A stretch of DNA of 64,000 nucleotides from Scenedesmus sp. PABB004 (lineage: Eukaryota). Both the position numbers and the translations under genes were made by a program. The stretch spans positions 1 to 64,000 of the forward strand of contig JABVCE010000011.1 in the NCBI GenBank assembly GCA_014905635.1. The letters are read 5' to 3'. Positions 1 to 64,000 of the stretch are shown one piece after another. Each line of letters begins with the position of its first letter. Position 1 is the stretch's first letter. The notes under the pieces are model-generated. The model ran no database searches. It saw only the letters and a list, made by a program, of their open reading frames with translations, and was not told where the DNA came from.

Positions 1-153
1 GCGCCGCCGCGGCGCGCGGGCCGGCACGCGGCGGCCGCCGCAGCCCGCGCAGCAGCCGCGCGCCCCTCGCCTCCTGACGCCCCGCTCGCTCCCGCCCCGC
101 CCCGCCCCCTTCACGCCACCCCCCCCCTCCCCCACCCCGGCCTTGGCCCGCAG

Positions 154-3100
154 CGTCCATCCCGGTGGTGGGGTTCAACGCGGTGCTCATGAGCGAGCAC
201 TTTGGCGCCTTCCTCGCCTGCGCCGCCATCCACGCCGCGCTCGCGGTGCGCTGGGTGCGCTCGCTGCTGCCGCCGCGCCAGTTTGAGGCGGCGACGCGCG
301 TCGTGCTCGTCGGCGGCGCGTGCGCCCTCGCCGCGGTCACGCTGCTCGTGCTCGGCTACGTCCTGCGCTCGCCGACGTTTGGCTGGACCGGTGCGCGCCC
401 GCGCCGCCGCCGCCGCGCGCCCGCGCATGCGCCGCCGCCGCGCCCCCCCCCCCCCCCCCCCCCCCTCACGCGCCCCTCCCCTCATCACGCCCCCCCCCCC
501 CCTCGCCCAACACCCCCCCCCCCAGGGCGCAGCCTGACGCTGCTCGACCCCACCTACGCCTCGCGCTTCGTGCCCATCATCGCCAGCGTGAGCGAGCACC
601 AGCCCCCCAGCTGGCCCAGCTACATCACGGACCTCCACTTTGCCGCGCTGCTCGCGCCGGCGGGGCTCATCGCAGCGTTCCGGCGCCTCGACAACGGCGA
701 GCGGCCGCGCCGCGCGGGCGCGCCGTCACCCCCCTCCCTCTCTCCCTCTCTCTCCCTCTCTCTCTCCCCCTCCCTCTCTCCCTCTCTCTCCCTCTCTCCC
801 TCTCTCTCCCTCTCTCTCTCCCCCCTCTCTCTCTCTCCCCTCCCTCTCTGTCCCGCCCTCCCTCTCACCACCCACCCACCCCCCGCCCGCCCACCCCCTC
901 ACGCGCAGGCTCGCTGTTCCTGGTGCTGTACGGTGTGACGGCCGCCTACTTCAGCGGCGTCATGGTCCGCCTCATGCTCGTCCTCGCCCCCGCCGTGTGC
1001 TGCCTCGCGGGCGTGGCGGTCAGCGACGTCCTCTCCACCCTCACGGCGAGCCTCAAGGCCGGCGTGCGCTCCGCGCGCGGCGGCGGCGCCCGCGCCAGCG
1101 CCGGCGGCGCGGCCGACGCGGCCGCGGCCGACGCGGGCGACGACGCCGACGGCGGCGGCGGCGCACCGTCGGCGGGCGGCGGCAAGCGCGGCGGCGGGCG
1201 CGGCAAGCGCGGCGCCAAGGGCGGCGCCGGCGGCGACGAGGCGCGGGCGCTGGGCGGCTTTGGCGACGCGTTCCTTGGCTGGCTGTCGCCCGAGGCGCGG
1301 CCCCTGCCCGCGCCCGTCGCGGCGCTGGGGCTGGGGCTCATGCTGGGGCTGATGGCGCTCTACACCATCCACTGCGTGGGGTGAGCGTGTTTTGTGTGGG
1401 GGGGGGGGGGGCGCTCGGGGGCACGGGAGGCGCGCGCGGCGGGGCGGCGGGGCAGCAGGGGCGGCGGGGGCGGCGGGGCGCGCCCGGCACGCTCACCCTT
1501 GTCCCACTCCCCCCCCCCCCACATCCACCCTCCCACACCACCCACTCCCACCCACCCACACCACCCACTCCCACCCACACCACCCACGCCACCCACTCCC
1601 GCCCGCCCACCCACGCAACAGGTCTCCGCCGACATGTACAGCGCGCCGAGCATCGTGCTGCAGAGCCACAAGCCCGACGGCAGCTTCTACGTCTTTGACG
1701 ACTTCCGCGAGGCCTACGCCTGGCTGCGGCACAACACACACCCCGAGGCAAAGGTCGCGAGCTGGTGCGGCGCGCGGCGCACGGCGCGCGGCGCGCGGCG
1801 CGCGGCGGCACACCGGGGCACCGGGGGGGGGGGGCGTGTGGGAGTCGCGGGGTTGGGGCCGTAACCCGCGCGGTGCCTCGGGAGGGCAGGCGGGCGTGGG
1901 GGCGTGGGACCACCATGTGGCGGTTGACCCGCGCACGTGCGTCCCACGCCCCCACGCCCGCCCTACCTCTCTCGAGCGGCCCGCGGGCGGCCTGGTTCAG
2001 GCCTTGGCGCCCCTGCCTGAGCACCTACCCTAAAACCCCTAAACCACTCCCTCCCCCGCCAACACCCCTGAACCACCGCAGGTGGGACTACGGCTACCAG
2101 ACGACCGCGATGGCCAACCGCACGATCGTGGTCGACAACAACACGTGGAACACGAGCCACATCGCGACCGTGGGCCGCGCGATGGCGAGCCCCGAGGCCA
2201 AGGCCTGGCGCATCTACCGGTCGCTCGACGTGGACTATGTGTTTGTCGTCTTTGGCGGCCTCATCGGGTACAGCAGCGACGACATCAACAAGTTCCTCTG
2301 GATGGTGCGCGCGCCGCGCGCTGCGCTGCGCGGGCTGCGCGCAATGTGTGCTGCGTGTGCTGCCGCGTGTGCTGCGCGTGCTGCGCCGCGCGCCTCGAGC
2401 GGCGCCGGCGCCCCTCGCGCGCGCGCGCGCGCTCCCCCATCCTCCGCGCACACAATGCCACACTCACACACTCACACACTCGCATACACACTCACACACT
2501 CGCATACACACTCACACTCTCACACACTCACACATGTCACACACACGTCACCCCCGCTCCGACGCACACTCACACCCACCAACGCCAGGTGCGCATCGGC
2601 GGCGGCGTGTACCCGGAGATCAAGGAGCCCGACTACATCGGCGAGGGCGGGCAGTACCGCATCGACGCCGGGGGCGCGCCCGCGATGCTCAAGAGCCTCA
2701 TGTACAAGCTCTCCTACCACGAGTGAGGGCTCTTTGGGGGGCGCCGGGGGTGAAGGGTTCAGGGTTCAAGGGCGCAGGGCAAAGGGACGGCGGCGAGAGG
2801 GGCGGCGAGAGGGGCGGCGAGGGCGCCGCGCCGCTGACCCGCCCGCGCGCGCGCCCGCAGCTTTGCGCAGGCGTCGCAGCGCCAGCTCGGCATGGCCGGC
2901 TTTGACCGCGTGCGCCAGACGCAGATCGGCAAGACGGACGTGAGACGCGCCGCGCGCACGCGCACGCACGTGCCGCGCCGCGCCCATTCGCCATCCGCAT
3001 TCGCCCGCACCGCGCGCCCGCGCGCCCCGCCCCCTGCGCCCCGCTGCCCCCCCCCCAAACCTCCCCCCCTTACAACCCCAAACCCTTCCCCTTCAAACCC

Positions 3101-52800: not shown

Positions 52801-55800
52801 GCGCGGCGGCGCTGCGCGGCGCGCCGCCCTGACGCGGCCGCCGCCCCGCCGCGCCGCAGCGAGCTGGTGCAGGAGCACGGCACCGGGCAGTGGTCGCTGG
52901 TGGCGCAGGAGCTGGGCACGGGGCGGCCGGCCGGCGTCGTGGTCAAGGCCTGGGTGCGGCACTGCCGGCCGGCACAGGGGCAGAAGAGCCGCGCGGGGCA
53001 GTCGCTGACGGGGCAGCTGCTGCTGCGCCTGGAGGGCCAGCAGGGCTCGGGGGCGGGCTGGCCGCGGCGGTCGAGGTGAGCGGCGAGGCGTCGGAGCCGG
53101 TCAGCGCGGCCGGCGGCGTCGCGTTTGGCGGCGCCGAGCAGCGCCGCCTGCTGCAGCTCGTCGCGCAGCACGGCAAGTGCTGGCGCCTGATCGGCCAGCA
53201 GCTGGGCTGCACCCAGCAGCAGGTGGGGCCCGGCGCGGCGTGCCGGGGGCTGTTGCCCGCAAGACCGCCGGCGCTGGGCGGCCGTCGCCTGCCCGCCCCC
53301 TTCGCCGCTGTGCGCCGCCGCGCCCACCCCGCCTGCTCACGCGTCGCCCCTCTCAGGCCAAGGACCACTACCGCCACCTCGTCTCCGCCGCCGGCCGCGC
53401 GGCGGGGCGCTGGCGCCCGGAGGAGGACCTCGCGCTGCTGCGCGCGGTGCGCACGCACGGCGCCGACTGGGCGGCGCTCGAGCGGCTCGGCCTCCTGAAG
53501 GGGCGCAGCGCGCGGCAGATGCGCGACCGCTTCCGGTCCGTGGTCAGCCCGCACCTGGACAACGGCCCGCTCAGCATGCAGGTGCGCGCGGCGTGACGCG
53601 CCATGCGGCGCGGCGGCGCGGCGGTGGCGGTGCGCGGTGGCCGCGCATTCTCGCGCCCACACGCCGCCCCCGCGCGCACAGGAGCTGGAGCTGCTGGTGG
53701 CGCAGGTGGAGCGCCACCAGGCAGCGTTCGGTGGCGTCAAGTGGGACGCGCTCGCGGCGGCGCACTTCCCGAACCGCAGCGCCTCGCGCCTGCGCTGGGT
53801 GTGGCAGAGCATTCGATACCACAGCGTGCGTTGTGGACCCGCGCGGCGGCACTCGCGCCGGGGGCGCGCGGGGTTCCACAGCAGCACGCCGCGCGGCCGC
53901 CGCCGCCGACCCGCCGCCGCCCCGCCGTCGCCGCGCCTCGCAGGGCGACCTGGTCGCAGTGCAGGCCGCCGAGGCGAACCGCGAGCTGCGGAGCATGCTG
54001 GCGGGCGCGCTGCCGGCGGCCACGCCGGCAGCGACGGCGGTGGCGCCGGCGGCGTCGGTCGCGACGGCGTCTGGCAGCGCGCTGCAGTCGGGCGGCGCGC
54101 AGGGCGAGCAGCAGCAGACGCCGCTGCTGCCGACCCTGTCAGGCTACGGCCAGGCGCGCCTGCGCGCCGCCAGCCGCAAGAGCCTCACCGCCTCGCTCCC
54201 GGGCAGCCTCGGCGCGCCGGCGCCGCCGCCCGCGGCCGGCGGTGCCGCGGCTGCAGCGGCGGCGGCGGAGCGCAGCGTGCTGCGCGCCCTCATGCACCGC
54301 ACGGGCGAGGGCGCGGCGCCGCAGCGGAGCGTGGTGTGGCAGGTCGAGGATGTGGTGCTGCTCTCGCCCACGGGCTACGTGGCCGCGCCGCCGCCCGGGG
54401 TGCGGCGCGGCGCGGCGCGCGGCGCACGGCCCGCGCCGCTCCCGCCCGCGGCCGCGCCGCTCGGCAGCGCCGCCGACGCGCCCTGCCGGCGTCCTGCCTG
54501 CGCGCCCCGCCCGCGCCGCAGGGCGTGCACCGCATGTCGTGGCACGCGTATGCCAGCAGCCCCGACACCGCCGCGCCCGCCGCCAACCTGCTGGTGGGCC
54601 TGCCGGAGCGGCTGCCGATGCCGACGCCCCAGCAGCACGCCGCCTTCCTGGCCTGGCTCGCAGAGCGCTACGCGGAGCAGCGCGCCTGGCACGCGCGCCT
54701 GGCCGGCCAGCAGGCGGGCGCCGCCCCGCGGCGTGGCCGCCCGCCCGCGCAGCGGCCGGGCGGCGGCGGCGCGGCGCCCGGCCCGTTCGCGCCGCTCGCG
54801 GCGGCGGCCTCGGCGGAGCTGCCGCCGCTGCCGCGCGTCAAGTACCACGACGCCGCCGGCAACAGGCAGCCGCGCGCGCGCCGGCCCTCGCAGCCCGGCG
54901 GCGGCTCCGGCGCCGACGCCGACGACGAGCAGCGCCTGGCGCGGCGCGAGGCGGCGGCGCGCGAGGCGCAGCGCACGATGCAGCAGCTCGGGCTGGCGGC
55001 GCCGGCGGCGCCTGTGCCGCCGGCCGGCGCTGCGCTGGTGCCGCGGCCGGAGCAGGCGGGCAGCGTGATCCAGTTTGTGATGGCGCAGCAGGCGGCGGGC
55101 CAGCAGCTGCTGGCGCGGCTCGAGGCGGCGGCCGCGGGCGGGCCGCCGTCGCCGCAGCTGCTGGCGCAGCAGGTGGCCATGCGCGGGCAGCTGGTGGCGC
55201 AGCAGGCGGCGCTGATACGGTTCCTGCAGCACCTGCAGGCGCAGCCCGCCGCAGCGGCGGCCGCGGCGTCGGCCGCGTCTGCCGCGACGGCGGCGCTGGC
55301 GGCGCCGCAGGCGCAGCAGCCGCAGCCACAGCCGCCGGCGATCGAGCAGCAGCTGCAGGCCTTTGCCCAGCCCAACCAAGCGCAGCAGCTGGCGGCGCTG
55401 CAGGTGCTGTGGGGGCAGCAGCAGGCACACGCAGCGACAGCGGCGGCGGCGGCGCCGCCGCTGGCGGCACAGCCGGCGGGCAGCGGGAGCGCCGCGTGCT
55501 CGCGCGCGCACACGCCCACGCCGCAGCAGCCGCTGGCCTCGCCCCGGCTCAGCAGCAGCGGCGCCGTGCAGCGGCAGGGCAGCACTGCCGGCGCCGCCGC
55601 TGGCGTCCGCGCCGCGGCCGCCGTGGAGGGCGGGCCAGCCGCGGCCGCCGCCGCAGCGGCGGCAGCGGGCAGCGAGGCGGCCGGCGCGGGGTCGCAGCAG
55701 GCAGGCCAGGAGTCGCAGGCGCCCGCGGCCGCCCCGCCGCCGCAGCGCCCAGCAGGCGCCGCGCGCGCGGCAACCCAGCAGCGCGCCCGGGCGCCCACGC

Positions 55801-57719
55801 TGGCCGACGTCTTTGGCGCGCCCGGGGAGCGCCTGCGGCTCGCGCCGCAGCCGCCGACGCCGCAGAGCCGGCGGCCTGCGACCGGGAGTGATGGCGGGAG
55901 TGATGAGCAGCCGCAGCAGCCGCAGCAGCCGCAGCAGCCGCAGCAGCCGCAGCAGCCGCAGCCGGCGCCGGCAACGCAGGTGCCGGAGCCACCGCTGGCG
56001 GACGGCGCCGACGGCAGCGAGCTGGCGGCCGTGGCGCCGCCGATGGTGCTCCGCTTTCCCCTGCCGCCGCTGCTGGGGCAGGACAGCGCGCGCGACGCGG
56101 CGATGCGCGTGTTCGCCGACTGGCTGGCGGTGGAGCTGCCGCTCGCGGCGGCGCGGCAGCGCGCGGTGGAGCAGCAGCTGCAGTCGGCGGCGCCGACGGC
56201 GGCGAGCCAGGGCGGTGCGCCGGGGCAGCCCGGCAGCGGCGGCGCAGCGCCCGAGGCGGGCGGTGGCCGCCGCCGGGCGCGCAGCGTCAGCAGCACTGCT
56301 GGTGTTGGTGGTGGCGGCGGCGGCGGCGGCGGCGACGCGGCCGACCCCAGCAGCGACTGGGAGCGCGCGAGCAGCGGCGACGAGGCCGCGCCGCCGGGGC
56401 GGCGCTCGGCGTCCGAGGCCGGCGCCGCGGCCAGCGGCGCCGCGGCCGGCAGCGCCGCGGCGGCGCGCGGCGACCGCGGCGCGCCCCAGCCAAAGCCGAA
56501 GCTCACGGCCGAGCAGAAGCGCGTCGCAAACCTGCCGCTCGTGCTGCTGGCCGCGCGCGGCGGCGCCATCCTGCTGAGCGGTGTGGCGACGTTTGTTCAG
56601 CTCTTCCCCACGCCGCAGCACTGCGGCCTGTTCCTGCAGTGGGCGGAGATGGCGGGCGAGCGGGTCGCGCACGCGCCGTTCAAGCTCTCCGAGCTCAAGG
56701 GCGACGCGGTGCGGCTCAAGAGCCTGCGCTGGCTGCACCGCCCGCCGCGCCCGCGCGGGGGGCGCGGCGCCACGTCGCGCGCGCCGGCCGGCGGCGGCGG
56801 CGGCGGCGGCCAGCCGCGGGCGGCACGCGCCGCGGCCGCGGCCGCGGCCGAGCCTGGCACGGCTGAGGCCGCGCTCTCTACAGAGGGTGCGGCGGCCGCG
56901 GCGGCCGCGGCGGCTGCGGCCGCTGGCGGCGAGGAGGCGGCCCCCGCAGATGCGGGCGCGGCCGCCACGGCCGCCGCAATTGCCGGCGGCGCCGTCCGCG
57001 GCAGGTCGGCGCCGGGGCGCGCCAGGGGCGGCCACGCTCCGGCAGCCACGGGCGAGTCGCCGCCGACAGTGGCCCCCGCGGCGGCGGCGGCAGCGCCGGC
57101 GCCAGCGCCACAGCGCGCCGCTGCGAAGCGCAAGCGCGGCGGCTTGAGCGACCAGCCAGAGCAGCCAGGCGGGGCGCCCGGGCTGGCGGCGGCAGCGGGG
57201 CCAGCGGCGGCAGAGGCTGCTGGCGAGCCGCCGGCAACAGCCGCGGCCGACGGAGCTGCGGCTGCTGCGGCTGCCGCGGACGTGCGCGCTGGCAGCGCCA
57301 AGCGCGGCAGGCCTGCGCCTGGCCGAGGTGGCGGTGCCGAGGCGCAGGCGGCCGCCGGGCGCAGCCCGCGCTCCCCGGCGCCGGGTGGCGCAAAGGGACG
57401 CCGGCAGGCGGCACAGCTGCAGGAGCAGCAGGGCGCGCCTGGGGCTGCCGCGCCGGGGGCGGTCGATGCACGCGAGGCTGCGGCGCCGTCGCCGCAGCGC
57501 GCCGCCGCCAAGCGCAAGCAGGGCGAGCAGGGCGGCGACGCCACCCTGGCGGACGGCGGGCCGGCCAAGCGTGCGCGCGGCGCGAAGGCGCCCGCTGCTG
57601 GCGCTGCGCCCGCCGCGCCGGCACAGCCGCTGGCGGCGCAACAGCAGGGGGAGCAGGAAGAGCAGGCAGGCCGCCGTGGCGCGCGGGCGCGGCGCGCCAA
57701 CGTGCGGCTGCACGACTGA
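49831..57719 (+). CDS. SNAPC4: Large multi-Myb-repeat protein, SNAPC4/MYB4R1-like
   Basis: Exons 49831-49923, 50221-52280 (frameshift ~50735), 52385-52453, 52561-52745, 52860-53222 (frameshift ~53051), 53357-53581, 53682-53825, 53944-54399, 54522-57719. Coiled coil ALDANRALQERL before the repeats; Myb repeats RWTPSEEAAL, QWGPDELLRL..WSLVAQELGTGR, GKCWRLIG, RWRPEEDLALL..RSARQMRDRF, KWDALAAAHFPNRS; long disordered tail with NLS-like KRKR. Confidence 0.75.
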
Positions 57720-57885
57720 TGCGCGCGCGGGCCGAGAGGCGAGAGGCGGGCGGGACAGGGGAGGGGCCGGCGGCGGGCCCGCCGCTCCCGGGAGCGGTCG
57801 TCGACAACTCGCGTTGCAACAGTTGCTGCGCCGCGCCACGCGTACGCCCGCCCCGCGCACGCACGCCTGCCCGCGCGGCGCCGTC

Positions 57886-59137
57886 TCAGCGCTCGAGCGC
57901 CGCGACCGCCTCGTTGATGATCTTGGTGACTTCGGTGGCAAACTCGCGCAGCACGGGGTTTTTGTCTGCGGCGGCGCCGCGGGGCGGCGCGCGTCCACGC
58001 CGGCAGGGGTCGGCGCCCGGATGGCGGCGGCGGCGGCGCGGCGCGGCGGGCGCGTGCGCGCACCCGGGTGCCAGCGCAGCTGCAGCTGGCGGATGCGCTT
58101 GCGCCGCTCCGCCTCGGGCTCCGCCGCGGCCGCCGCGACGGCGGCCTGGATGGCGCTGCGCACGGTCACGAGGCTGAACACGCCGCCCTGGTCCTTGGCC
58201 TCGCGCCCGTCCGGCCCGCCGCCGACGCGCTGCTTTGCCGCCTGGCGCAGCTCCAGCTCTGTCACGCGCGCCCGCAGCTGGCGAACGTAGAGGGCCGAGT
58301 CGGCGAGCGTGGCCTGCGGCGCGGCGGGCGCGCGCCGCGGGCATCGTTGGCACTCCGCCGGCGCACACAGCTGCCGCGCCGCCCCGCCGCCCCACCTGCA
58401 TCGCGTCCATGTCGGCGTAGGCGTTGGCCAGCTCCAGCAGCGCGTCGTCCCTGCGGGCGCGCGGCACAGCAGCCAGCGCCGGCCGCCGTCGGGCGCCGCG
58501 CCCCGCCGCCGCCGCCCGGCGCCGCCGCGCGGCCCGCCCGGCGCCCCGCACCGCTGCAGCAGCGCGTCGTCGCGCACGCCGCGCAGGCGCTCCGCGCGCA
58601 GCCGCTCCTCGGCGAGGTCGGCGAGCAGCTGCTCGCTGCCGAGCGCTGCCTGCAGCTTGGCCGCCTCGAGCTGCGCCGACAGGCGCGACGCCTGCAGCGG
58701 CAGCCGCGGCCGGGGGCGTGCGCAGTGGGTCGTCGGCGCTGCGCCTGCTGGAGGGGCGGCGGGGGGGGGGGGGGCGAGGGCGCCGCCGCACCTCGCGCCG
58801 CTGCGCCTGCGCCTCCGCCCGGCTCGCCGCCAGCTGCGCGCCGCGCTCGACCAGCGCCGCCTCGGCCTCGGCCAGCCTGCGCGCGCGGGGGCGGCCGGCT
58901 GCGTGGCGCGGCGCGCGGGGGGGGGGGGGGGCTCGCGCGGGCAGGGCCGCGCGGCGGATTGCGGCCCGCGCACCGCGCCCGCTGCCGCGCCGCGTCCGCG
59001 TCCGCGTCGGCCAGGCGCGCCGCCAGGCCCTCCGCGCGGCCCTCGATGCTCTCCAGCGCCGCCGCGAGCAGGCTGAAGTGCGCGCCCGCCGACTCGGCGA
59101 GCGCCGCCGAGAGCGCGCAGCTCTGCGGCGCGGCCAT
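57886..59137 (-). CDS. Coiled-coil protein with C-terminal truncated J-domain (HPD)
   Basis: Exons 59137-58974, 58876-58792, 58691-58552, 58450-58396, 58313-58064, 57965-57886. ERRKRIRQLQLRWHP|DKNPVLREFATEVTKIINEA. Confidence 0.82.
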
Positions 59138-59588
59138 CGCCGCCGCTGCTCGCGCCGCGCCGCTCTGACAGCCGCAGCCCGGGTGCGGGTGGAGGCGCGG
59201 GTGCTGGTTATTCCTGCGGCCCGGCGGCGCTGCTGGGGCTGCTGGGGCGGCGGTGCGGCGATTGGCGGCGCGGCGCGTCGACGGGCACGGCGGCGGCTCC
59301 CGCGGCGCTGCGGCTGCGGCTGCGGCTGCGGCGCCAGGGCTAGCACTTGCGGCGTGGGTGCGGGGGCGGCCTGCGGCCGCGTAGCCAGCGTTCGAGTTGC
59401 TGCTGAGGCTTGAGACCTTTTCTCCCTCTGCTGCACGGCCAGCGGCCACGCGCACGCTGCCGGGCTTGTGTTTTCCCGCAAGCTGCAGCTCACACACACC
59501 GCGCCAGACGCCCACCACCAGGCCGCGCGCGCCAGCCCAGCCAGGCGCCAGCTGCTGCCGCCGTCCTCGACTCGCTTCCCCAGACGCG

Positions 59589-62261
59589 ATGGCGCGCCGC
59601 GCCCCCGCCGCCGCCCTGGGCCTGCTGCTGCTCGCTGCAGGTGCGGCGCGGCGCGCGCGCGCGCTGCCCCCCCCCCCGCCCGCCCGCCCCAACCACCGCG
59701 CCGGCACGGCGGGCGCGGGCGGCGACCGGCGCGGTCTCTCGATCCTTTACTCACGACCGCGCTCCCGCGATCGCAGGGGCCCTGGTGCGCGGCGCGCGGG
59801 GGGCTGGGTCACCCGCGGCTGTGGCGCCCGCCCGCGCGGCCGCGCGCCCGCCGCGCGCCGTCCGCGCCGCATCGCTCCGCGCGCACTGCCCGCGCGCCGG
59901 CTGGGCGCCGCCGCCGTCGCCGCTCACCGCGCCGCCGCCGCCGCCGCCGCTGCCACTGCACGCACGCAGGCCCAGGAGTGCGACCCCGCGATCGCGGTGC
60001 GCCGCCCGGCGGCGCGCCGCCCTGCGGCCGCCCTCCCCTCACCTCCCCGCGCCGCGGCCCTGCCGCCTGGCGCGCGGCCGCGCGCCCGGCCGCAACCGCC
60101 GCGACCGCCGCGACCGCGCGACCACCTGCGCAGGGCACGGAGCTCGTGGACATGGCGGAGCCGATCGGCGTGCTCGCCTGCAAGGTCCCGCCGTCGGTCA
60201 ACCTCACCGACGTCATGTCCCGCCTCACCGGCGTGCTCGCGGACCTGCCGGCCGAGCAGCTGAGCAAGCTGCCGGGCCTCGTCAAGCTCACGATCGGCGT
60301 CGACCCCGCGGCGCTCGCGCCGCTGCTGAGCCTCACGGGCGCCCAGATGGACGCGCTGCTGCCGCTGCTGCGCGACGTCAAGCCCGCGGCGCTCGCGGCC
60401 GTGTTCCCGCTGCTCGCCGGCCTGCCCGGCGGCACGCTCGAGCGCACCGTGCGATTCCTCAAGGCGGTGCGCGCGCGCCGCCGCGCCGCCGCCGCGCGGG
60501 CGCGCAGACGCGACGCGCGACAGGGAGGGGGCCCGCGCGGCGGCGCAGTGCCGCCGCACGCGCCGCGAGGCACGCGGCCCGAGCCGCCGCGCGCCGCGCC
60601 GCGCCCGCGCCCGCCGCGGCGCAGGTGGGCAAGGCGCAGCTGGCGGAGGTGCTGCCCCTCTTCTCTCGCATCACGGCCAACCAGCTCGCGGTCATGCGCC
60701 ACGCGCTGACCGTGCTGCCGGCGCCCGCGTGGAGCAAGCTCGCGGGCCTGGTGCAGGCGCTCGGCCCCGTGACAGACAGCGTCGTGACCGCCAAGGCCGC
60801 CAAGGGCGCGCTCCCCGCGCCCGCCGCGGCGGCGCCCGCGCCGGCGGCGCCCGCGGCGAGCACCGCGAGCGACGTGACGAGCTTCGCCAAGGGCCCCATC
60901 CGCGTGACCATCCGCGGTCGGCGCCTGCTGCAGGGCGACGCCGACGCCGCCGCCGGCGCGGCGCTCGCGGCCGCGGCGCTCGCGGCGGGCGGCAGCGGCG
61001 GTGACGCGCCCGCGGAGGCCATCCCCGGCCCCCCCGCCTCAGCCTGCGACCCGGGCATGGCGGTGCGGCGGCGGCGCGGCGCGCACCGCGGCGCGCGCGG
61101 CGGCGGCGCCCCTGCCAGCCGCCCTCGCCGCGCCCCTTCCGCCGCGAACGCCGCCGCCGCCGCCGCCGTCGCCCCGCGGCCGTGGGCTGCGTCCAACCCT
61201 GTCCACAGGGCATCGAGATCGGCGTCGCGCTCGTGGCCGACTTTGGCAAGGTGGTCTGCAAGTTCAGCGCCGCCAAGCTCAAGCCGGTGCTCGCCGAGAC
61301 GCTGTCCACGCTCAACGCGCAGCCGCCGGCGGTGCTCGCCAACCTGCCCCTCTTTGTCGCGGGGCTCACCGCGCTCGACCCCGCCGCCTTCAACGTGCGC
61401 GCCCCGCCGGGTCGCCGCCCGTCACCGGGACGCCGCACCGCCGCCCGCCGCGCCGCCGCCCCGCGCGCCGCCGGGCGCCGCCCTGCTCGCGCCGCCCTGT
61501 TCGCCCCGCACCTCCCCCCGACCCGCCCCGCGCCGCCGACCCGCCCCCCGCCGCCCCTCCACCCCCCGCCGCCCCTCCCCGCCCCGCCGCCCCCCAGGCG
61601 TTCTTCCAGATTCCCACCGACACGCTCGCGGCGCTCATCCCCGCGCTGGGCGCGCTCGACCCCGCCGCGGTCGGGGCGGCGCTGACCGTGCTCGGCGGCG
61701 CGGGGCCCGACACGGTCGCGGCGATGGCGCTGTTCCTCAACGCGGTGCGGCGGCGGCGGCGGGCGGGCGGCGCGGGCGGGCAGGGCGGGGCGCACGGGCG
61801 GGCGGGCGGGGGCGGTGCGCTGGAGCCGGGAGGGGCGGCGCCGGGGCGCGCCGTCTTACAGGACCGTCTTGCAGGACCCCCCCCCCACCACCACCCCACA
61901 CGCGCACACACACGCACACGCTGCCGCCGCGCAGGTGCCCGAGTCGCAGATCAAGGTGCTGCTGCCCGTGTTTGGCGGCCTGACCGACGACCAGGTCGAC
62001 ATGATGGCCGCGCTGCTGCGCGCGCTGAGCCCCGGCCAGGTCACGCTCGCGCTGCACCTGCTCAGCACGTTTGGCTTTGCCGTCGACGCCATCGGCGCCG
62101 CCATCCCCGCGGCGTCCCCCGCGGGCGGCGGCGCGGTCATGATCGGCCCGGTGCGCGTGACGCTCGGCGGCGCCGCGCCGGCCGCGCCGGCCGCGGCCGC
62201 CGCGGCGGCGGGCGCGAACCAGCGGCTCGCGTGGCGGCCGCCCTTCTTCGTGATGGGCTGA
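59589..62261 (+). CDS. Uncharacterised secreted protein with two helical 15-aa-repeat domains (paralog A)
   Basis: Exons 59589-59640, 59777-59784 (8 nt), 59970-59996, 60134-60466, 60625-61062, 61209-61394, 61598-61744, 61935-62261. All phases are consistent. Signal MARRAPAAALGLLLLAAGALA; RRLLQ lies between the two domains. Confidence 0.85.
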
Positions 62262-62663
62262 GCTGACCGCCCTGGGTGCTGCACTGCGAACCGCTGACCC
62301 CTGACCGAGCGAACCCCGGCCCCCCCCGGACGTGGCGAGGGGGCGGGCTCTCCCGCGCCCCGCGGCACTTTTGACCCCCCGGCACTGCAATGAGCGTGAC
62401 CGCAGGCCTGGTGTGATATTAACTTGCTGCTGGGGCACGACGTGAGCGCCGCGACACAACACACACCGGCGGCCCGAGCAGCGCGAGCAGCGCGTCACCC
62501 GGTCGGCGGCGGCTGCCTAAACCGCCTCCGCAGCTCCGCAGCTGGCCGACGCGCCGGCCGATGCGTGTTGCTGCTCACCAGCACCACGCGGCGCCCTCCG
62601 CACGTCGCCTGCCAGCGCGCAGCCTGAGGCACTGCGCGCGCAGCTGCTGTCGTCGGTCAGACG

Positions 62664-63977
62664 ATGGCGATCCGTCCGACGATGATCGCGGTGATGATGG
62701 TCATGGTTTGCATCGGTGCGTGGCGGCCGCGCGCGCACGAGCAGGACGCAGGACGCAGAATTGGGAGCGCTGGCGATGGTTGATGGCCCGCCAGCCCGCG
62801 GCGGAGCGACGCCGGCCCACGACGCCGGTCGCAACAAGCGCTCTGACCTGCTCCGCACCCCTACTGCCGCTGCCCGCAGGCGCGGCGGTGAGCGCGGGGG
62901 GCACCACGGCAGCGGCGTCACCAGCCGCCGCTCACTCACCCGACCGCACCGCGCCGCCGCCGCCGCCACGGCGCCGTCGCCGCCGCCGCTGCCGCCGCCG
63001 CCGCCACGCCGCCGTCACCGCCGCCGCCGCGCCGCGTGCGCGCAGGGCGCGTGCGACCTCGAGACCGAGGCGGGCAAGATGTCGGCGCTGGCGGAGCCGG
63101 TCGGGCGGCTCGCCTGCCGCCTGCCGCCGGGCGCGGACGCGGCGGCGATCATGGGCGGCCTGACGGGCACACTGCAGGGCCTCTCGCTGACGCAGCTGCG
63201 GGCGCTGCCGCAGCTCATCAAGGCGACCATCGGGCTCTACCCGGCGGCGGTCCAGGTGGGCCCGAGGTCTCATCGTTCAGGCCCTCGGCGCGTGCGGCTG
63301 GCTCGGCTCGCGCCGACCGGCCCCCCGTTGTCCCGCCGCCGCCGCCACCGCCGCCGGCCCGCAGCCGCTGCTGTCGCTGTCAGGCGGCCAGGTGTCGGCG
63401 CTGCTGCCGCTGCTGACCGAGGTCAGCGCCGAGAAGCTCAAGGTCGTGCTGCCGGTCCTCGCGGCGCAGCCGCCCGGCGCGACGGACCGCATGGTCCGCT
63501 TCCTCAAGGGGGTGAGAGCCGCCAGGGCGCGCTGCTCCCGGGGCGCGCGCGCCGCCGCGCCGGCCACGCCGCGGCGGGCGCGACGCCTGCCTGGCTCACG
63601 CGCCCGCCCGCCCGCCCGCCTGCCCGCCCGCCCGCCCGCCCCGATGCCCGGCAGGTCTCGCGCGCGCAGCTCGAGGCGGTGACGCCCGCGCTCGCGCGCA
63701 TGACGCCCGCGCAGCTCGACCTGCTCTCCCGCGCGTCCGGCGCGCTCCCGGCGGGCAGCATGACGCGGCTCGCGGGCATGGTCCGCGGCGTGGGCCCCGT
63801 GGCCAGCAGCACCGTCGTGGCGCCCGGCAAGGGGCGCGTCGCCGCCGCCGGCGCCGCCGCGGGCCTGGGCGGCGGGCTGCAGCTCGGCCCGTGGGCCTCG
63901 TGCGCGCGGGCCCGATTACCCTCGGCCGCAGGCTCGCGCAGCAGGCGGGCGCCGCCGGCTGCGAGCCCTTCCTCAAG
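62664..63977 (+). CDS. Uncharacterised secreted 15-aa-repeat protein (paralog B), 3' partial
   Basis: Exons 62664-62715, 62880-62887 (8 nt), 63046-63255, 63365-63511, 63655-63977 (frameshift ~63894), then a donor at 63978. Aligns with paralog A domain 1 (AEPVGRLACRLP vs AEPIGVLACKVP; RMVRFLKG vs RTVRFLKA). Confidence 0.82.
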
Positions 63978-64000
63978 GTGAGCTGGGTGGGCCCCAGGGC

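Follow-up and report, generated by a model that had tools for sequence, protein, structure and literature searches.

The first 64,000 nucleotides of contig JABVCE010000011.1 of the alga Scenedesmus sp. PABB004 (the window) open a 1.28-Mb contig in a 40-Mb genome of 80 contigs, and their GC content is 74-83%. Towards the 3′ end of the window lie two tandem genes on the plus strand, A and B, that encode secreted proteins with two homologous domains of ∼170 aa each. These domains, D1 and D2, are called A1 and A2 in gene A and B1 and B2 in gene B (Table 1). A first-pass annotation made from the sequence alone had described A1, A2, B1 and the start of B2, each opening with a Cys pair. This description holds: B2 is complete on the continuation of the contig (G000:C4), and all four domains carry C(D/E)(P/L)...C(K/R). 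The annotation also saw a tandem family that might continue past position 64,000; the cluster is tandem but consists of two genes only, with an unrelated gene 3′ of B.

Table 1. Features of genes A and B, in window positions; arrows mark candidate cut sites.
Feature	Position	Strand	Basis or remark
Gene A, 8 exons, 506 aa	59589..62261	+	Open frame after splicing
Gene A exons	59589-59640, 59777-59784, 59970-59996, 60134-60466, 60625-61062, 61209-61394, 61598-61744, 61935-62261	+	
Signal peptide of A, aa 1-21, interrupted by micro-exon 59777-59784	59589..59972	+	Inspection of sequence
Domain A1 (D1): Cys24 and Cys45, irregular helices, six 15-mers (60335-60762, one intron)	59979..60762	+	
A1-A2 linker, low-complexity: Ala-Pro-rich stretch, GPIRVT motif, cut-type motif, Ala-rich spacer	60763..61044	+	
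RRLL↓Q, site-1-protease-type motif (RxxL/RxLx) then Gln, gene A	60919..60933	+	Motif count in relatives; specificity from PMC13082318
Domain A2 (D2): Cys281 and Cys303, irregular helices, six 15-mers (61613-62072)	61045..62072	+	
Conserved IGP(V/I)RVT motif, C-terminal to D2	62142..62162	+	Two short beta strands in the model of a relative
Gene A C-terminus WRPPFFVMG-stop: hydrophobic tail, last residue Gly, candidate amidation site	62232..62261	+	
Gene B, 5′ part, exons 62664-62715, 62880-62887, 63046-63255, 63365-63511, 63655-63977	62664..64000	+	
Domain B1: Cys pair and six 15-mers (63380-63792)	63052..63792	+	46% identity to A1
1-nt frame change, gene B exon 5	63889..63891	+	Codon score and GC3 shift between frames
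RRLA↓Q motif of gene B, downstream frame	63927..63941	+	Partly within the 41-nt "intron" of the public model
Start of domain B2 (CEPFLK), then intron	63960..63977	+	

Seven introns, all GT-AG and 136-203 nt long, interrupt gene A, and one of its exons is an 8-nt micro-exon. The spliced product is 41-46% identical to five full-length relatives across 462-490 aligned residues. Some of these five come from contigs of 1.8-2.3 kb on which the complete coding sequence fits, so that they are intron-free, which provides independent support for the splicing. Their identical layout, with signal peptides recognised by inspection, bears out the earlier view that the proteins are secreted. To judge from the sequence, the signal peptide of A is probably cut at ALA↓Q to leave an N-terminal Gln; A↓Q or G↓Q stands at this place in six of seven full-length relatives (alignment A3). 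The micro-exons 59777-59784 (A) and 62880-62887 (B) split both signal peptides, and a distant 15-mer gene described below appears to have a similarly short second exon. Domain A1 also has an N-glycosylation sequon, NLT, at aa 52.

Gene B has its own signal peptide, first and second exons of the same sizes as those of gene A (52 and 8 nt), and several introns at places equivalent across the domains of the two genes. It runs past the window (G000:C4 64109-64294, 64427-64573 and 64738-64992) and ends ...GGVTLG-stop at contig position 64992. The first pass did not flag the frame change in exon 5. Beyond ∼63889-63891 the downstream frame, identified by coding score, reads ...GPITLGRRLAQQ, and the in-frame counterparts of its cut-type motif in relatives are GRRLAQ or GRKLAQ. 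The frame change is either an assembly error or a true lesion. The database match in the protein search, KAF8062900.1 (877 aa, hypothetical protein, Scenedesmus sp. PABB004), appears to be a wrong fusion of genes A and B. It exits gene A inside the last exon, within the IGP(V/I)RVT motif, and re-enters in gene B, where a 41-nt stretch of exon 5 is treated as an intron, deleting the frame change; the 14 other introns measure 109-203 nt. The gene B linker motif and the gene A tail appear to be lost from this record.

The 15-residue period is strong in every domain. All 18 of the 15-mers quoted in the first pass from A1, A2 and B1 are present letter for letter and in register. They had been called exact, which is true of their length, but the unit sequences have diverged; the layout of six 15-mers per domain also stands, with the correction that at least four helices of irregular length precede them. 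In a BLOSUM autocorrelation over lags 5-45 against 200 shuffles, A1, A2 and B1 each scored highest at lags 15, 30 and 45 (z 3.7-5.6). B2 peaked at lags 15 and 30, with lag 45 in fifth place. Over eight aligned proteins, position 1 of the unit is an N-cap-type residue (S/T/D/N/P/G) in 91% of D1 and 96% of D2 units, as had been noted. Large hydrophobic residues occupy positions 5, 8, 9, 11, 12 and 15 in 69-100% of units, so that position 11 joins the earlier list of 5, 8/9, 12 and 15. Pro stands at position 10 in 44% (D1) and 29% (D2) of units, and V/I/L/M/F/W make up 32-39% of each domain. The 15-mer run is a chain of short capped helices. A pentadecad (15/4) right-handed coiled coil was ruled out by the N-cap residues and by frequent Pro at positions 1, 2 and 10, as was its continuous helix by an AlphaFold2 (AF2) model in which the helix is interrupted every 15 residues.

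Domain identities are 46% for A1/B1, 47% for A2/B2 and 31% for A1/A2. The D1 domains form one clade (support 96/100) separate from the D2 domains; thus, the internal duplication predates the duplication that gave rise to A and B. Searching 1.84 billion representatives with a profile yielded 99 proteins at E≤0.001. Read individually, almost every one is either a full-length member or a piece of exon size with intron read-through; P0095 looks like a chance match. Among 20 proteins that were looked up, the records that give an organism name Tetradesmus obliquus, Scenedesmus sp. NREL 46B-D3 and Hariotina reticulata, so that all named members belong to the Scenedesmaceae, although the range may be wider. 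Two T. obliquus members carry gene numbers close together (11303 and 11307), which points to a tandem cluster in that species as well. In the H. reticulata protein P0008, D1 is short of 49 residues, a block that corresponds to one gene B exon and was probably missed in the gene model. P0011, P0100, P0102 and P0103 form a divergent subgroup whose linker is short and without a cut motif; P0011 also has two additional Cys and a long Gly/Phe-rich tail with GRH at its end.

No Pfam family reached its cut-off for the 2, 9 and 49 proteins scanned, nor did any NCBIfam family, and a sequence search of the PDB gave nothing better than E 0.013. On this sequence evidence, the two-domain 15-mer proteins constitute an undescribed family. 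Invariant columns of the alignment are mostly L, P, G, C, F and Q, with no conserved catalytic set apparent among them. The UniRef record of one relative, P0010, is named 'MgtE intracellular domain-containing', a name unsupported by Pfam: MgtE_N had no match at E≤0.1 for P0010 and eight others. FliG rows were at chance level (FliG_M at E 0.26 in 1 of 49 proteins and another at E 0.35). MgtE_N has a period of ∼12 residues, and the A/B family differs from MgtE_N and FliG in its period of 15, its secretion and its Cys pairs.

The first pass had recognised no known repeat family, in agreement with these searches and with a period of 15 residues and one helix per unit. TPR, PPR, OPR, HEAT and ARM alpha-solenoids share with A and B an all-alpha fold of tandem amphipathic, N-capped helices. 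Their units, however, are helix hairpins or three-helix modules of ∼34-47 residues arranged in one strand. The A/B unit is one 15-residue helix, with a 45-residue super-period in which each 15-mer nevertheless itself repeats. A relative of A and B is a distant family with a single run of 15-mers (P0096 from this genome, C1:2885711-2887277, and P0106-P0110; hhalign probability 96.6, E 5e-10). Both families have a signal peptide, the 15-mer pattern (∼13 units in the P0096 family), the last helix and RR(L/F) near the C-terminus. The P0096 family, likewise undescribed, differs in its single repeat run, its lack of a Cys pair and its several N-glycosylation sequons. The P0096 gene (G000:C1:2885711-2887277, L023:964-2530) ends ...GRRFLH, its relatives end in RRL and a short hydrophobic tail, and its public model seems to read through an intron after the micro-exon.

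Structure prediction was confident when both domains were present. For the two-domain relative P0002 (49-row alignment), AF2 placed 259 residues at a predicted local distance difference test score (pLDDT) of at least 90, with both domains at 84-97 and a predicted template modelling score (pTM) of 0.67. As the first pass had supposed, each repeat is modelled as one helix: the 15-mers form 13-residue helices at 98-110, 113-125, 128-140, 143-155, 158-170 and 173-185. The two Cys of each pair sit at either end of a single long helix (26-46 and 299-321), and the stretch equivalent to the A1-A2 linker has low pLDDT. Small helical bundles align to model ranges 24-29..342-349 (64-93 residues, root-mean-square deviation 3.7-3.8), and another aligns to 154..470 (62/62 residues, 3.0). 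These alignments span both domains and are indirect evidence that the modelled D1-D2 pairing is parallel.

ESMFold2, given A1 and A2 as separate chains, scored the complex at 0.60 against 0.00 for the best of three controls, for which the tool's verdict is 'weak support'. Contacts agreed between runs to at least 88%, and partner pLDDT was at least 75. The pLDDT of A1 was 77-80 with A2 and 44-49 with unrelated partners; that of A2 was 75-78 with A1 and 45 with an unrelated one. In calibration, 51 of 78 solved complexes attained the complex mark, as did 2 of 108 mismatches; for eukaryotes the corresponding figures were 39 of 65 solved pairs and 2 of 126 unrelated ones. Scores of 0.60 or under accounted for just 5 of the same 78 solved complexes and for all four passing mismatches (of 180).

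A conserved cut-type motif between the domains makes a proprotein likely. R[RKL][LMF][LQAMK] precedes the next Cys in 23 of the 31 rows that carry the end of D1, nearly always with Gly before it and Gln after it. The eight rows without it are the B half of the public model, three pieces that stop at an intron and four rows of the short-linker subgroup. RxxL/RxLx is the motif of the site-1 protease (S1P/SBT6.1; PMC13082318), and an S1P-like subtilase is present in Chlamydomonas (PMC6313938). Here the motif lies in a linker that the model leaves exposed and that would face the lumen, as expected of an S1P substrate.

The C-termini carry a second candidate signal. Of 32 rows that reach the end of D2, 19 finish with a Gly after varied hydrophobic tails, and genes A and B end in Gly as well; three of the 32 belong to the distant family, and four further rows of the two-domain family have other endings. 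Among secreted Chlamydomonas proteins the background frequency is 49 of 771 (PMC6313938), and since the rows are related, this excess is a pattern to which no p-value attaches. The genome has a gene like that of peptidylglycine alpha-amidating monooxygenase (PAM), with PHM-N, PHM-C and NHL matches in order (G000:C37:182783-184356). Secretion, terminal Gly in A and B, and this domain order on C37 are what a PAM substrate and its enzyme should present. An S8 subtilase match lies ∼2 kb upstream of the PAM-like gene on the matching strand (G000:C37:180405-184356, L026), and two more copper-monooxygenase genes are found on C1 and C2.

In our reading, the chain runs signal peptide, D1, linker, D2 and short tail, and D1 and D2 are anciently duplicated strings of ∼11 short amphipathic helices each, the last six on a strict 15-residue period made of a 13-residue helix and a 2-residue joint, with the N-cap at position 1. 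The gene structure, the period, the conservation and a D1/D2 split that precedes the gene duplication are established; what follows is predicted or inferred. In the models, the two probably co-fold, N-end to N-end and C-end to C-end, into a pseudo-two-fold, two-stranded helical body that buries wide hydrophobic faces. Two reciprocal disulfides between D1 and D2 may engage all four Cys, at slightly less than even chance. We are fairly confident that a subtilase of the site-1-protease type cleaves within the linker, at R[RK]L[LQA]↓Q, so that the mature protein has two chains whose Gln N-termini can cyclise, and we lean slightly towards amidation of the Gly-ended members by PAM. Durable extracellular proteins have features that include blocked ends, disulfides, Ala-Pro-rich and Gly-rich tails, and sequons, and these features argue for such a protein here. 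Offered tentatively, the likeliest job is in the cell wall or extracellular matrix, as a durable module that is structural or binds hydrophobic surfaces; its Gly-rich and GP-hydrophobic tails would act as assembly or anchoring elements. As a whole, a small Scenedesmaceae family of secreted proproteins that mature into a two-chain, possibly disulfide-locked wall or matrix protein seems to us an evenly balanced proposition.

Several points weigh against this proposal. The structural evidence is all prediction, the two AF2 runs (P0002 and A1 alone) differ in first sequence and alignment, and the A1-A2 complex score falls in the tool's 'weak' band. Close cousins of the partner also pass the complex test, so that D1-D1 or D2-D2 pairing is possible. 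The linker motif is missing in the P0011 subgroup and six rows end ...KN or HNH without Gly; thus, neither signal is universal. Many rows are near-identical, and the motif and Gly counts are not independent. No S1P orthologue was picked out among the 76 S8 matches in the genome, and gene B may be a broken allele. When Chlamydomonas CAH1 was expressed in Arabidopsis, its spacer was removed without need for a specific motif (PMC4809292). Finally, family accessions were not found in the main-text passages and one supplementary file of one Scenedesmus maternal-wall proteome (PMC11839794), which is weak evidence against a wall location because its list is small.

Two Chlamydomonas proproteins offer partial precedents. 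CAH1 (PMC4809292) resembles the proposed A and B proproteins in its signal peptide, an internal spacer that is removed and disulfide-held subunits; unlike them, it is an enzyme with unequal and unrelated subunits, and no sequence relationship was seen. ProGATI (PMC6919629), like A and B, is secreted and has subtilase-type sites and a Gly-based amidation signal. In A and B, by contrast, the conserved part is the helical pair and not the tail, and searches found no sequence relationship.

Among the closest known systems for the fold are the designed cyclic helical repeat multiplexes C2HR1_4r (8EOV) and C3HR3 (8EOZ, 8G8I); PMC10695826 names only coiled coils and collagen as examples from natural proteins. 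A and B could, if the model is right, be a natural protein duplex, a geometry that protein designers have pursued: two homologous strands of single 15-residue helices would wind in parallel about a shared axis, with reciprocal disulfides to lock them and a protease of the site-1 type to part them, although we think this rather unlikely. Such duplexes may form wall fibres by stacking or polymerising through their beta/Gly-rich tails, or may surround a lipid channel.

The wide hydrophobic faces could instead line a cavity. D1 and D2, paired and processed alike, would then be a soluble carrier of lipids, algaenan precursors or pigments, an improbable reading but the best surviving alternative. 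Proteins of the Bla g 1 and secretoglobin types are capsules of this kind. The nematode polyprotein allergen, Bla g 1 and prosaposin are polyprotein lipid carriers. Tandem helical units and convertase-type sites, which mark this class, are also found here, with two units and the motif in the 23 of 31 rows; no corresponding Pfam match occurred among the proteins scanned. Six of 15 positions are large hydrophobics, covering ∼160 degrees of the helix by angle arithmetic, the hydrophobic content of the domains is that given above, and algaenan, a long-chain aliphatic polymer, occurs in chlorophyte walls (PMC10762512). Against a carrier, ligand-binding residues are not evident, and the 45-residue super-period, strongest in D1, fits three helices per turn around a filled core on geometric grounds.

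The first pass had favoured a polyprotein cut into single-domain solenoids that act alone, for which the nematode polyprotein allergen is the analogue. This now seems decidedly improbable. Both predictors are confident about a domain only beside its partner: A1 alone (30 rows) reached a mean AF2 pLDDT of 69, zero residues at or above 90 and a pTM of 0.41, and the structure matches of this low-confidence model were below the tool's trust level. Moreover, all full-length relatives seen carry a single D1 and a single D2.

A signal precursor like proGATI, whose amidated hydrophobic C-terminal peptide is the active product and whose helical domains are carrier or chaperone, is very improbable. Many members do end hydrophobic-Gly, the genome has the PAM-like gene and Chlamydomonas makes amidated chemotactic peptides from large precursors (PMC6919629), but the tails are far less conserved than the helical domains, one subgroup is Gly-less and aligned relatives lack a conserved cut site upstream of the tail. 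Least probable of all, by a little, is a vacuolar storage or stress protein of two disulfide-linked chains, analogous to 2S albumin, with the hydrophobic tail as sorting signal: the two-part proprotein, Cys pairs, removable linker and hydrophobic C-terminal tail would suit it, but a Leu/Ala-rich protein has low nitrogen value, Ala-Pro-rich linkers such as those of A and P0008 are typical of wall glycoproteins, and plant C-terminal vacuolar signals tend to be blocked by terminal Gly.

What is new is an undescribed family of 15-residue, one-helix repeats with a confident structural model and a specific predicted maturation route. Its members are candidate wall or matrix components for a biotechnologically important algal family, and plausible algal substrates of S1P and PAM beyond Chlamydomonas. 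If the duplex is true, nature would have its own counterpart to the extendable repeat multiplexes made by design, and one that could readily serve as a scaffold. The importance of the family is limited by its seemingly narrow taxonomic range.

The neighbours of A and B are of other kinds. Directly downstream of B, tail to tail on the minus strand, is a gene (L004:3400-5580, G000:C4 ∼65400-67580) with NAGSSSLKF, GHRVVHG and FDTAFHQT, which we take to be acetate-kinase-like motifs. Head to head with A, also on the minus strand, lies a gene at window ∼57880-59140 whose last exons appear to be spliced into a J-domain-like LRWHP↓DKNP; two of its frames, unspliced, had no Pfam match. Further upstream, on the plus strand (window 53499-57719), is an Ala/Gln/Pro-rich low-complexity open frame that spans 1406 codons between stops and may begin with a Myb-like segment. 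Beyond the window, an intronic tandem repeat has a 21-nt unit present ∼5 times (L004:7220-7330), and a direct repeat of ∼145 nt lies downstream of a U-box-like gene (L004:9300-9560).

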